Source: Candidatus Latescibacterota bacterium (GTDB lineage Bacteria; Latescibacterota; UBA2968; GCA-2709665). Taken from it: a stretch of 64,000 nucleotides of DNA. The notes beneath the pieces are model-generated. The model saw only the letters and a program-made list of their open reading frames with translations. It searched no databases and had not been told where the DNA came from. Of the stretch, positions 56,559 to 60,647 are shown piece by piece. The stretch spans positions 384,001-448,000 of the forward strand of contig CBDDDZ010000003.1 in assembly GCA_965226795.1 (NCBI GenBank), in the 5' to 3' direction. The first letter of the stretch is position 1. Every line of letters begins with the position of its first letter. The translations under genes and the position numbers were made by a program.

Positions 56559-57219
56559 CCGGTGGTTGGGTGAGTCGGCGGATTTCCCCACGTATTTTCC
56601 ACATACTGGTGCCATAGCCTGAGGATAACTCGCGAGTCTAATGAGTTAAATAACATAAAAACAATTGTTTTAGTTATAAACATCTACTTTTGTACAGTTA
56701 TTCAGGGATGTGGATTACCGCGCGTTGCTCCCCGCAGGGGATATGCCGGTGCTCGTTTCGTCGTCCTTATCCCTTGACCGGTGGTTGGGTGAGTCGGCGG
56801 ATTTCCCCACGTATTTTCCACATACTGGTGCCATAGCCTGAGGATAACTCGCGAGTCTAATGAGTTAAATAACATAAAAACAATTGTTTTAGTTATAAAC
56901 ATCTACTTTTGTACAGTTATTCAGGGATGTGGATTACCGCGCGTTGCTCCCCGCAGGGGATATGCCGGTGCTCGTTTCGTCGTCCTTATCCCTTGACCGG
57001 TGGTTGGGTGAGTCGGCGGATTTCCCCACGTATTTTCCACATACTGGTGCCATAGCCTGAGGATAACTCGCGAGTCTAATGAGTTAAATAACATAAAAAC
57101 AATTGTTTTAGTTATAAACATCTACTTTTGTACAGTTATTCAGGGATGTGGATTACCGCGCGTTGCTCCCCGCAGGGGATATGCCGGTGCTCGTTTCGTC
57201 GTCCTTATCCCTTGACCGG
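56559..57219. repeat. Exact tandem triplication, 219-bp unit, oriC-like
   Basis: Units start at 56559, 56778 and 56997. Each has DnaA-box-like 9-mers and an AT-rich core, and the junctions share CCGG. Confidence 0.95.
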
Positions 57220-57295: not shown

Positions 57296-58153
57296 ATGCG
57301 ACTGCTCACCTTTGATTGCCAGGGAGCACGACGCGTGGGTGTCAGGTCGGGAGATACGATCGTGGACGTGAACCGTGTCGATCCCGACATCCCCCCGGAT
57401 CTCCTAAGCCTGCTGGAGGCGGGGCCGGCCGCGCTGGAAGCGGCGCGAGAGGCGGCAGAGGGAGGCGAAGGCATCGACGCCGGTGGCGTCCATGTGGCGG
57501 CGCCCATCCAGAATCCGGAAAAGATCCTCTGCATCGGCCTCAACTATGCGGACCACGCCGCCGAAAGCAATATGCCCATTCCCTCCGAGCCGGTGGTATT
57601 TTCCAAGTTCTCTTCCACGATTATCGGTCCCGGCGATGCGATCCGCCTGCCGTCAGTGACGCGGTCTATCGACTATGAGGTCGAACTGGTGGTTGTCATC
57701 GGGACGGCAGGAAAGGATATATCGGAATCCGACGCGATGGACCATGTCGCGGGCTATACCGTGGGCCACGACGTGAGCGCGCGGGACTTCCAGCTTGAAA
57801 AACCTGGCGGGCAATGGCTGTTGGGCAAGACCTTCGACACCTTCGCGCCGCTGGGACCGGATATTGTCACCCCCGACGAGGTCGACGATCCGCACAACCT
57901 GGGTATACGGTGTATCCTGAACGGCCAAACCGTTCAGGACTCGAATACGGAACAGCTGATTTTCAAGATCGACCAACTGATCGCCTACCTGTCCCGGGTT
58001 GTCACTCTCCAGCCCGGCGACCTGATCTTCACGGGCACGCCACCCGGAGTCGGAATGGCCCGCCGGCCGCAACTCTGGCTGCGAGCCGGGGACACCGTGG
58101 TTTGTGAAGTCGACGGCATCGGCAGGCTTGAGAATCCGGTTGTTTCCGGCTGA
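57296..58153 (+). CDS. Fumarylacetoacetate hydrolase family protein
   Basis: KILCIGLNYADH, DYEVEL, HDVSARD, GKTFDTF, TGTPPGVG. Confidence 0.95.
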   Translation: MRLLTFDCQGARRVGVRSGDTIVDVNRVDPDIPPDLLSLLEAGPAALEAAREAAEGGEGIDAGGVHVAAPIQNPEKILCIGLNYADHAAESNMPIPSEPVVFSKFSSTIIGPGDAIRLPSVTRSIDYEVELVVVIGTAGKDISESDAMDHVAGYTVGHDVSARDFQLEKPGGQWLLGKTFDTFAPLGPDIVTPDEVDDPHNLGIRCILNGQTVQDSNTEQLIFKIDQLIAYLSRVVTLQPGDLIFTGTPPGVGMARRPQLWLRAGDTVVCEVDGIGRLENPVVSG

Positions 58154-58312
58154 CGGATTCGAGGTCGAAAAACCGGGGTCGCTGCGGTGGCCCCGACAAC
58201 CTCTGGAATCATGCCGAAGCCTGTCGCCCCCGTGGTCCCGCAGACACGGCGGCTCTCATACTTGAACCGGTATAGCGTGTCGTTATCTGATGTATAAACC
58301 GATTTTTTGTGG

Positions 58313-58344
58313 TCAACTTACACACACGAGTGTGTGTAAGTTGA
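58313..58344. promoter_or_regulatory. Perfect 15-bp inverted repeat, candidate operator
   Basis: TCAACTTACACACAC-GA-GTGTGTGTAAGTTGA, 60 bp upstream of the HTH-mutase ATG. Confidence 0.75.
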
Positions 58345-58404
58345 GGCGCGGTGTCGCAATCGTACTTTCAGTGTCGCAGTATCCCCTTAACGGAGGCTTC
58401 GCGG

Positions 58405-60246
58405 ATGAATTTCGGCGATATGATCGAGAGGGCGCGCAGGGGCAGGTTCAGCCAGGAGGGGCTGGGCGAAAGGATCGGCGTCTGGGGCACCTACATTGGA
58501 CAGATCGAGAGCGGGAAGCGAATTCCTTCGGATGAGCGATGCCTGGACCTGGCGGCCATTCTTGACCTGGACCCCAGGGCGCTTCTGATACAGGCTTACA
58601 GGCAGCGCGCCCACACAAAAGAGGCCAGGCGCCTTTTTGACCGGATGGCGAGGTTGCTTTCGGATCCGCCCGTGAGCTGGCGGAAGGCGGATGGCATCGC
58701 GGGCGACGACCACCAACCGGCCAGTGTAGAACAGGGAGATATCCTGGCGGAACGGATCGGTCGCGCGGGTGAGCCGCCCTTCACCCGCGGCGCCTACCGG
58801 TCGATGTATCGTGGGCGCCTCTGGACCCTTCGCCAGTACGCGGGATTCTCCACCCCGGCGGAGACAAACGCCCGGTTTCGCGCTCTGCTTGCCGGGGGCC
58901 AGACCGGCCTGAGCGTGGCCTTCGACCTGCCCACGCAGATGGGCTACGACTCGGACCATCCTGTCGCGGAGGGAGAAGTGGGCAGGGTGGGGGTGGCAGT
59001 CGACGGCCTGTGGGATCTGGAAGCCCTGTTTGATGGTATCCCCCTGGACCGCATCAGCACTTCCATGACAATCAATGCGACGGCGTGCATCCTGTTCGCG
59101 TTCTACGCGGGCCTACGAAAAAAGTGCGGGCTGCCTTCATCGGTGCTTACCGGCACGGTCCAGAACGACATTCTCAAGGAATATGTTTCACGTGGAACAT
59201 ATATCTTCCCCATCGCCGACTCGATGCGCATGGTTGTGGATCTGATGGGCTATTGTCTCCGGGAGGCGCCGAAGTGGAATCCCATCAGCGTCAGCGGGTA
59301 CCACATGAGAGAAGCGGGCGCAACCGCCGCCCAGGAGCTTGGTTTCACGCTCGCCCACGCCCTGTCGTATGCCGATGCCACCAGGGACGCCGGCCTCGAA
59401 CTGGAGCGGATCCTTCCGAAATTCTCCTTCTTTTTTGGCGTCCACAACCATTTCCTTGAAGAAGTCGCCAAATTCCGGGCCGCCAGGCGACTCTGGAGCC
59501 GCCTCGTCGAGGAACGCCTGGGTGTCGGGGACCCGCGCTGCAGGCGACTGAGATTTCACGCCCAGACCGCCGGCTCCACACTCACGGCGCAGCAGCCGTT
59601 GAACAACTGCGCGCGGACCACGCTGCAGGCGCTGGCCGCCGTGCTGGGCGGCGCCCAGTCCCTGCACGTCAACGCCTACGACGAAGCGCTCGGCCTGCCG
59701 TCGGAAACGGGAGCGCAACTGGCCGTCCGTACCCAGCAGATCCTCGCCTGTGAAAGCGGCATCCCCGACACCGTCGATCCGATGGGCGGGTCGTTTGCGG
59801 TCGAGAAAATGACCGATGAACTGGAGGAGGAAGCCATTGCCGTTCTCGAGTCGGTCGACCGGGAGGGGGGGGCCACGCTGGCCGCCGCGAACGGCTTCAC
59901 AGCAGCCTGTATCGCGGATTCCGCATACGATACGCAGAAGAAGATTGAATCCGGTGAAACGGTCGTGGTGGGGGTGAACCGGTATCAGGAGGCTGCGGAT
60001 CCACCTGCTTCCGTATTCGAGCCCCCACAGGACACGGAGCATACACAGAAAGGTGGGCTGGCGCGGGCCCGGAACCTGCGGGATTCCGATGCGACGAATG
60101 CTGCGCTGGACAAAGTCGCACGTCGGGCTCGGGGGAAAGGGTCGATCACGGAGGCGGTCGTGGCGGCGGGGATGGCCGGCGCAACGGTGGGCGAGATTTC
60201 GGACAGGCTGCGCGCGGTTTTTGGATCCTACAGACCCGGAGGGTAA
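58405..60246 (+). CDS. XRE-HTH fused to a methylmalonyl-CoA mutase substrate-binding subunit
   Basis: HTH SQEGLGERIGVWGTYIGQIESGKRIPS; mutase PFTRG, RQYAGF, GLSVAFDLPT, QNDILKE, SGYHMREAG, HAQTAG; no DxHxxG B12-binding domain. Confidence 0.88.
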   Translation: MNFGDMIERARRGRFSQEGLGERIGVWGTYIGQIESGKRIPSDERCLDLAAILDLDPRALLIQAYRQRAHTKEARRLFDRMARLLSDPPVSWRKADGIAGDDHQPASVEQGDILAERIGRAGEPPFTRGAYRSMYRGRLWTLRQYAGFSTPAETNARFRALLAGGQTGLSVAFDLPTQMGYDSDHPVAEGEVGRVGVAVDGLWDLEALFDGIPLDRISTSMTINATACILFAFYAGLRKKCGLPSSVLTGTVQNDILKEYVSRGTYIFPIADSMRMVVDLMGYCLREAPKWNPISVSGYHMREAGATAAQELGFTLAHALSYADATRDAGLELERILPKFSFFFGVHNHFLEEVAKFRAARRLWSRLVEERLGVGDPRCRRLRFHAQTAGSTLTAQQPLNNCARTTLQALAAVLGGAQSLHVNAYDEALGLPSETGAQLAVRTQQILACESGIPDTVDPMGGSFAVEKMTDELEEEAIAVLESVDREGGATLAAANGFTAACIADSAYDTQKKIESGETVVVGVNRYQEAADPPASVFEPPQDTEHTQKGGLARARNLRDSDATNAALDKVARRARGKGSITEAVVAAGMAGATVGEISDRLRAVFGSYRPGG

Positions 60247-60248
60247 CC

Positions 60249-60647
60249 GTGGACGGATGCGTGGATCATGTTGGCATTGCGGTTGACGAGATTGACAGGG
60301 CTCTGGCTGTCTATTCCATGCTCGGGTTCGAAAAGATGGAAGAAGAGACTGTGGAAGCGGAAGGCGTTCGAGCCGTATTTCTCGGCGGCGCCGGCCTCAC
60401 ACGGATCGAACTCCTCGAACCACTGGACGAGCGGAGTTCCCTGGCGAGATTCATTTCCGGACGGGGGCAGGGTCTACACCACATCGCGTTCCGCGTGAAG
60501 AATGTCGAAGCGGCCGTCTCAACCTGCAAAGTCGACGGGCTCAAGATCGCCGGCGAAGTCCGGACAGGCGCCCTCGGAAGGCCTGTGGCGTTCATGCATC
60601 CCAAAAGCGCATCGGGCGTACTGATCGAACTCGTTCAGGCCGCTTGA
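60249..60647 (+). CDS. mce: Methylmalonyl-CoA epimerase
   Basis: DHVGIAV, IELLEP, GLHHIAF, FMHPK..GVLIEL. Confidence 0.92.
   Translation: MDGCVDHVGIAVDEIDRALAVYSMLGFEKMEEETVEAEGVRAVFLGGAGLTRIELLEPLDERSSLARFISGRGQGLHHIAFRVKNVEAAVSTCKVDGLKIAGEVRTGALGRPVAFMHPKSASGVLIELVQAA

Follow-up and report, generated by a model that had tools for sequence, protein, structure and literature searches.

The 64,000-nucleotide stretch analyzed here (the window; positions 384,001 to 448,000 of contig CBDDDZ010000003.1 of a Candidatus Latescibacterota bacterium) carries a gene in which a helix-turn-helix (HTH) domain of the XRE type is joined to a methylmalonyl-coenzyme A (CoA) mutase. The gene (58405..60246, plus strand) encodes 613 amino acids without an internal stop. 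Its ATG at 58405 is preceded by GGAGG at 58392-58396, and the GTG at 58351 suggested by the ORF finder is an upstream extension. Three parts can be distinguished: the XRE (HTH_3) head (residues 1-87; 58405..58665), a linker (residues 88-114; 58666..58746) and the substrate-binding barrel of the mutase (residues 115-613; 58747..60243), all on the plus strand. Pfam places HTH_3 at residues 15-58 (31.8 bits, cut-off 23) and MM_CoA_mutase at residues 118-607 (632.6 bits). The methylmalonyl-CoA epimerase gene mce (60249..60647, plus strand) begins 2 nt past the fusion stop and passes TIGR03081 (131 bits, cut-off 115). A previous sequence-only reading had described one uninterrupted HTH-mutase frame followed by mce, with the motifs RQYAGF, QNDILKE and GYH in the barrel; this was borne out by the profile searches, and all three motifs are present in the translation.

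The fusion is real and fixed in its genus. A full-length version in a single open frame is present in 14/14 other genomes of the genus with 83-90% identity, and the junction at about 58670-58740, at which two separate genes could have been joined artificially, is bridged by contigs of three of the four sequencing runs (X3, X5 and X12), two of these being RNA libraries, whose contigs are no proof of transcription. In the remaining run, X11, the junction is covered only in pieces, without a bridging piece. Taken together, the relatives and the bridging contigs rule out an assembly artefact. The possibility that relatives encode the two halves separately was also raised before: this holds outside the genus, where XRE and mutase genes are separate, but not within it, where they are fused in all 15 genomes. 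The bacteria of the fused genus are uncultured and likely sponge-associated; two runs that cover over half of the stretch are labelled as sponge metagenome, and homologues carry the source names Candidatus Latescibacterota or ‘Gemmatimonadota’ metagenome-assembled genomes. In one genome (G009; L022 / L125) the start of the fusion is out of frame because of a short deletion near codon 10, and an upstream in-frame ATG would yield a protein with an altered first helix.

Profile matches and alignment identify the barrel as the large subunit of a methylmalonyl-CoA mutase of the split type with intact active-site residues. It passes TIGR00641 (636.4 bits versus a cut-off of 303.8; residues 119-610 of 613) and has no B12 domain of its own; among the NCBIfam models, that of the mutase N-terminal domain was passed, whereas the full-length, IcmF and beta models failed. 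Each of the 15 genus genomes contains exactly one PF01642 match, i.e., the fusion is the only mutase large subunit, and neither a second mutase nor a second close copy of the regulator was found in the genome. Residues Y145, Q253, R263, Y299, H300, E303, Q387 and E427 align with Tyr89, Gln197, Arg207, Tyr243, His244, Glu247, Gln330 and Glu370 of 1REQ, the active-site positions of methylmalonyl-CoA mutase. At the specificity positions the fusion has Tyr/Arg as in 1REQ, and the 2-hydroxyisobutyryl-CoA mutase 4R3U has Ile/Gln. The active-site motifs are kept in all 15 genomes, with one RQYSGF and one variant of NAYDEA. Purifying selection on the barrel is evident from a ratio of non-synonymous to synonymous substitutions (dN/dS) of 0.105 for residues 115-540; here and below, the ratios for the fusion come from pairwise counting among 14 fusions (G009 was left out for its frameshift), and the relatives are not independent. 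The usual N-terminal arm, a median of 54 amino acids before PFTRG in stand-alone homologues, is absent, and the match of the fusion begins at Pfam position 23.

The partners of a split mutase are encoded elsewhere. The genes for the B12-binding small subunit, which passes TIGR00640 (158 bits versus 57), and for meaB lie side by side on another contig (G000:C4, about 190.6-191.8 kb). Their reported absence from the window agrees with this location, with the reservation that the rest of the window was not scanned gene by gene. The B12-binding subunit was found in 14 of the 15 genus genomes, the sole miss being a 320-contig assembly, and meaB is one open frame in 13/13 relatives. Only in this assembly is meaB broken, by a 17-nt insertion at G000:C4 about 190970 (L039:6969); the insertion is absent from all four runs and is likely an assembly error, which rules out a mutase that is dead because of a broken meaB. 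The genome also has a carboxyl-transferase gene, and its cobalamin riboswitch stands before a gene for a periplasmic binding protein.

The head of the fusion has a separate history. Of 132 genomes in the class, 94 encode a single-copy regulator that is matched by residues 1-88, and the head is orthologous to the N-terminal half of this protein with an invariant recognition region. Outside the genus (79 genomes) the regulator sits in open frames of 95-303 amino acids, i.e., it is unfused. In comparison, the mutase is present in only 25 of the 132 genomes, and therefore the old job of the regulator was independent of the mutase. The stand-alone protein has about 166 amino acids and is all helical, with a P22 c2-like head (model of an orthologue against the P22 c2 DNA-binding domain: Z 11.4, root-mean-square deviation 2.1, 64 residues). 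For its helical C-terminal half, no fold match was present in the structure lists and no counterpart was found in this genome using tblastn; an 88-amino-acid gene beside the site called B below was considered as the lost half and discarded, as it shows no similarity (probability 0.3%). In the ESM Atlas, residues 1-200 of the fusion gave no usable match and the stand-alone protein led to generic HTH_3 clusters. Among the best 120 of 157 longer proteins containing the head, 11 are this fusion and the rest have up to 240 amino acids, with the exception of one 369-amino-acid protein on a single contig, which comprises the complete stand-alone regulator and a tail without a family match. There was no mutase match among the best 150 representatives in this search, which was aimed at fusions of the present head.

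The substitution pattern indicates that the HTH is kept by selection in the fusion. The dN/dS values of the head are 0.065 for residues 15-45, 0.147 for residues 2-62 and 0.25 for residues 63-87, compared with 0.043, 0.127 and 0.104 for the same segments in seven stand-alone orthologues of another genus. The head is therefore little relaxed since the fusion. The linker is near neutral (dN/dS 0.81), has no invariant column among 27 and varies between 19 and 43 amino acids from one fixed anchor to the other. In a model of the fusion monomer, the confidence score pLDDT (predicted local distance difference test) is below 50 at residues 80-114; the head is weakly modelled as well (pLDDT 42-71), and the model is uninformative on docking. 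An in-frame Met (residue 81) stands ahead of the linker in 13 of the 15 genomes, and this Met is also invariant in the stand-alone regulators.

Upstream of the fusion, the sequence-only reading had pointed to a perfect 15-bp palindrome and proposed to look for its conservation. The inverted repeat is indeed present (58313..58344; arms 58313-58327 and 58330-58344, 15 nt each, 100% complementary and 2 nt apart), but it is perfect in this genome alone: the perfect arm is only 1-9 bp long in 13 others that were measured, which rules out the 15-bp perfection as a conserved feature. Moreover, such repeats are not rare, since the genome holds 65 perfect inverted repeats of at least 15 bp, 20 of them with a gap of at most 2 nt. 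What is conserved upstream in the relatives is only the 18-bp core ACACACAC-NN-GTGTGTGT, without the seven outer pairs. Here it reads ACACACAC-GA-GTGTGTGT (58320..58337), lies 67 bp upstream of the ATG and is the predicted site of the XRE head. The core occurs once in the window and, with up to two mismatches allowed, in 0/100 shuffles. It is found in single copy between the gene of the fumarylacetoacetate hydrolase (FAH) family (57296..58153, plus strand), which invariably bounds the locus on the left in the relatives examined and belongs to the context and not to the mechanism, and the fusion in 14/14 assessable genus genomes (the contig of G004 ends before it). Using a matrix trained on 19 sites, all from loci outside the fused genus, the window palindrome ranks first in the 5.4-Mb genome (25.4 bits; maximum of the reversed genome 17.7), and the exact degenerate pattern has 37 matches in the 15 genus genomes versus 6 in the reversed control. 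For the order's other family, real and control matches are about equally common, so that position alone counts there. The core is very likely the operator of the fusion's own XRE head in front of its own gene. Autoregulation through this palindrome, as suggested before, would fit the conserved position, but the distance to the ATG is 64-67 bp in only six genomes and 572-1085 bp in eight.

The same core was also detected upstream of the stand-alone regulator, in two copies 64-65 bp apart in six aligned genomes of the order. Among 52 stand-alone loci from metagenomes, two or three sites (mostly with a spacing of 62-65 bp) are present in 32, a single site in 3 and no site in 17; a palindromic site upstream of the own gene is therefore seen in 14/14 fused genomes and 35/52 stand-alone loci. 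The motif accompanies the XRE gene when the neighbours change, and it is likely the footprint of the ancestral stand-alone regulator. In the outgroups the second site, the left half of which is degenerate, fills the spacer of a divergent promoter (TTGACA-N17-TATATT, read by eye), an arrangement that points to repression. At one orthologous site the central AA/TT is found in either orientation.

Behind this divergent promoter the outgroup loci contain a conserved non-coding multi-hairpin stretch of about 220 nt (L120:3560-3885 (-), L133:4438-4775 (+), L035:1040-1359 (-), L121:5750-6046 (-) and others) with repeated CUCCCC loops, which resemble an anti-Shine-Dalgarno sequence, and a GGGGAGGG/CCCUCCCC stem. 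Covariation is slight (1/12 pairs), and seven loci gave no Rfam match at gathering level. The stretch is a candidate for a small RNA under the control of the stand-alone regulator. The RNA was found in 0/15 genomes of the fused genus, with 150 candidates scored per genome and five positives that were in the training set. Several genera also carry a gene for a coiled-coil protein of 115-146 amino acids and of no known family divergent from the stand-alone regulator (L031:2243-2587 (+) and orthologues); it is present in 0/15 fused-genus genomes and was not found in the genus termed g5.

When up to two mismatches are allowed, the fused genus has matches at just four loci, namely the fusion and three sites termed A, B and C. 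Site A is situated directly behind an EamA gene and ahead of a DUF34/NIF3 gene in 15/15 genomes, compared to 0/15 EamA loci outside the genus; this contrast refers to the locus and not to one promoter, as the NIF3 gene is not adjacent to EamA outside the genus. In this assembly the DUF34/NIF3 gene (L042:5050-5100, G000:C2 about 472.5 kb) lacks its 5′ end, which may reflect a deletion or an assembly error, and it is whole in the closest relative. Site B is located about 300 bp before a CbiX-like/molybdopterin-oxidoreductase-like gene common to the order (12/15 versus 0/15 outside), the CbiX part of which has no His ligands. The stretch from site B to the CbiX-like gene contains, on the opposite strand, a conserved ORF of about 45 amino acids resembling a membrane protein (L043:14100-14240 (+)), which is deleted in G001. 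Site C is present in 6/15 genomes, before a WD40 protein in G000, G002 and G009 and by position in G001, G007 and G010. Site A and the fusion's own site are 60-110 bp ahead of start codons, and in genomes with the three new sites on one contig, these are no more than about 105-135 kb apart. An operator was detected neither in the 15 B12-subunit/meaB loci examined (best score 2.5 bits) nor in the one carboxyl-transferase locus. Across 26 cobalamin-riboswitch loci there is no conserved one either: a 12.5-bit match (G000:C3:559771) was discarded because it is inside a coding frame and not conserved at the 25 other riboswitch loci. A site at G000:C5:2527499 was also rejected, being below control level (11.5 bits); by eye it resembled an operator of the toxin-antitoxin type. 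The best reading of these data is that the regulon was rewired in the fused genus, with tandem operators reduced to a single one, old neighbours lost and new sites gained.

Gene order in the relatives points to how the fusion arose. In the genera g2 and g4 the order is FAH, the coiled-coil gene, two operators, the regulator and rsmG, and in the fused genus it is FAH, one operator, the fusion, mce and rsmG. In g5, FAH is followed by the same two operators, an unfused mutase, mce and rsmG, and a diverged regulator lies elsewhere. The g5 mutase is the exclusive sister of the fused mutases (support 1.0 in a tree of 64 sequences, about half of the listed homologues); a species tree from four neighbouring genes does not place g5 firmly (support 70), and its branching order is weakly supported. 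Most likely, the fusion arose by a deletion between neighbouring genes. The ancestor would have had the genes for regulator, mutase and epimerase in a row behind the control region with two operators, and the deletion would have removed the C-terminal half of the regulator together with the N-terminal arm of the mutase and joined the rest in frame. Different deletions from this ancestral row would be the simplest history, with the change in operators, neighbours and sites at the same node. What maintains the sites in g5 may be the divergent promoter and the RNA, and not the mutase. Immediately behind the stop of FAH, where the candidate RNA ends, g5 shows a strong inverted repeat (29-bp arms in G021; L024, L025), which is probably a terminator-like hairpin. 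A deletion that fused two genes had been offered as the alternative to a regulatory role; it is the likely origin, with separate genes in relatives and the operators still standing before the unfused mutase of g5, and it is compatible with function and no competitor to the regulator reading.

The closest comparison is BzdR of Azoarcus and Q1, a synthetic chimera of the BzdR XRE head and linker with E. coli shikimate kinase I, which is described as both enzyme and repressor (PMC3602430). Like the fusion, both consist of an N-terminal XRE head of about 90 amino acids, a linker and an enzyme-derived domain (PMC3602430). Here, however, the C-terminal part is a B12-mutase barrel with an intact active site and not a shikimate-kinase-like effector domain, the head comes from another XRE lineage (the stand-alone orthologue scores 15 bits on PRK08154, cut-off 204), the linker is unconstrained, and the fusion is natural and confined to one genus. 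With the trigger enzymes it shares a DNA-binding domain that is joined to an intact sole-copy enzyme, both under selection. It differs from PutA, BirA, NadR and the archaeal RbkR, for which PMC5397151 gives regulons of own-pathway genes and proven ligand control, in that its own operon (mutase and mce) is the only target assignable to the pathway. Conserved sites are lacking at the B12-subunit/meaB and riboswitch loci, the function of the other targets is unclear, and ligand control is hypothetical. The split mutases (TIGR00641; HcmA 4R3U, MutB 1REQ), which PMC6759758 mentions as heterotetramers, have the same barrel, a small B12 subunit and MeaB encoded elsewhere and an adjoining epimerase; unlike them, the fusion has an XRE head and linker in place of the N-terminal arm. 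The ancestral regulator resembles P22 c2, SinR and DdrO in its P22 c2-like head and the tandem 18-bp palindromes near its own gene, but it is uncharacterised and its helical C-terminal half is absent from the fusion. By sequence, the fusion is a split mutase joined to an XRE family member and no BzdR, and it is no more than a candidate trigger enzyme. The sources that name its members call them only ‘methylmalonyl-CoA mutase family protein’, and in the openly accessible literature titles and the beginnings of abstracts contained no description of an HTH-mutase fusion, in agreement with the sequence-only reading, which was aware of none.

We give about even chances to a bifunctional protein, namely a working mutase whose loosely tethered head binds DNA and serves a rewired regulon. 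The barrel would isomerise methylmalonyl-CoA with the separately encoded B12-binding subunit, and the head would occupy the 18-bp palindrome in dimeric form and likely repress the mutase-epimerase operon and two or three unlinked loci. The head would sit on a floppy neutral linker, with the mutase oligomer standing in for the lost C-terminal domain; DdrO is described as requiring its C-terminal domain for dimerisation (PMC12828697). As the linker is floppy and neutral, the two activities would most likely be coupled by amount and assembly, with autoregulation setting the mutase level. Several observations weigh against this. PMC3602430 indicates that the isolated XRE head of BzdR dimerises alone, so that the mutase may not be needed for a dimer. 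The long spacers between operator and ATG in 8/14 genomes are repeat-rich and awkward for direct autoregulation, and no sigma-70 promoter was called at 58000-58500, so that activation in place of repression is conceivable for the fused genus. Site B is flanked by the ends of two small converging genes, with the next start on the same strand about 300 bp away, and the new targets (DUF34/NIF3, CbiX-like/oxidoreductase-like and WD40) share no evident pathway. The loose pattern also matched three regulator-less genomes (G038, G042, G058), at control level. G009 has helix 1 altered by its frameshift and yet retains all four sites, although the frameshift may be an assembly error. Finally, an XRE gene adjacent to but not fused with a mutase was not found in the inspected loci of the order or in 55 metagenome loci.

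A true trigger enzyme, in which acyl-CoA binding or docking of the B12 subunit or MeaB alters the barrel or oligomer and thereby makes the head bind or leave the operator, is the strongest rival but clearly less likely. The mutase replaced exactly the C-terminal half of the regulator, the same node saw a change in operator architecture and in targets, operators stood before the unfused mutase of g5 already, and acyl-CoA mutase barrels open and close on their substrate. In the same way, we regard it as possible, though doubtful, that the B12 mutase took over as sensor and oligomerisation module of the repressor in a newly born natural trigger enzyme, that acyl-CoA or B12-subunit status switches the 18-bp operator, and that the ancestral targets were dropped. 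To our knowledge, a radical B12 isomerase would here serve as a transcription factor for the first time. The switched genes would be its own operon and the recruited DUF34 metal-binding protein, CbiX-like protein and WD40 symbiont protein, and the fusion would be a natural counterpart of the engineered Q1. For Q1, PMC3602430 describes that the XRE head and linker became ligand-responsive once fused to the enzyme, also to benzoyl-CoA, and that the linker is required; furthermore, the fusion is the sole enzyme copy, as described for RbkR (PMC5397151). On the other side stand the freely evolving linker with its low pLDDT and lack of invariant columns, and the excess of regulator-bearing genomes without a mutase. 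The sensing of acyl-CoA or of the B12 subunit, as originally proposed, is unsupported, as no conserved site is present at the B12-subunit/meaB and riboswitch loci, and none at the carboxyl-transferase locus. A tight allosteric reading of acyl-CoA or B12 is less likely than coupling by amount and assembly.

It is unlikely that the head is mainly structural and replaces the N-terminal arm of the mutase in assembly, while the palindrome is read by something else or as an RNA hairpin. XRE-fold domains occur in the enzymes HppE, HEPD and MPnS, where they play a non-regulatory role, the arm of about 50 amino acids is gone, and the first outgroup site is inside a predicted hairpin of the candidate RNA. 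But conservation in the head is highest in the HTH and not in helices 63-87, the Pfam match of the unfused g5 mutases likewise begins no earlier than position 23-26, and the motif stays with the XRE gene; the promoter-spacer position and degenerate left half of the second outgroup site and the varying AA/TT orientation fit a double-stranded operator. We consider it quite improbable that an internal start or cleavage in the linker frees regulator and mutase, so that the fusion is merely a shared frame. The linker is unstructured and Met 81 precedes it, but this Met needs no second role given its invariance in the stand-alone regulators, no conserved start or ribosome-binding site was seen by eye in the linker, and the frame is kept across 15 species despite many linker indels. 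Least probable of all is that the sites are anchors, with the head pinning the mutase to a few chromosomal places or bridging them. The clustering of the new sites, the position of site B and the lack of a common function among the targets would fit, but each genome has only 3-4 sites, site A and the own site precede start codons, the ancestral sites overlap a promoter, and the clustering may be plain synteny.

Routes from enzyme to regulator are usually known by inference from ancient families or by reconstruction in the laboratory. In this case the states before and after are both found in sequenced genomes, as a free regulator with tandem operators, a free mutase behind the same operators and a fusion with changed sites. 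The predicted operator is now specified to the base, and an uncharacterised regulator of most genomes in the class has gained a binding motif and a candidate small-RNA target.

Some further features of the locus were noticed. In 4 of the 15 genomes an insert of about 4.7 kb separates the fusion from mce (L125:5959-10647, L127:1509-6200, L128:1982-6800, L131:1933-6681); it encodes a TonB-dependent receptor and a SusD-like lipoprotein and is followed by a duplicate of the last 28-37 codons of the mutase. Between the phosphatidyltransferase and FAH genes (window 56559-57219), a 219-bp non-coding unit is present in three identical head-to-tail copies, possibly an assembly error or a recent amplification. 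The fusion locus adjoins rsmG-mnmE-yidC, an origin-type neighbourhood, and the mutase coding sequence contains a parS-like 16-mer (59184-59199), at the same place in the relatives examined.

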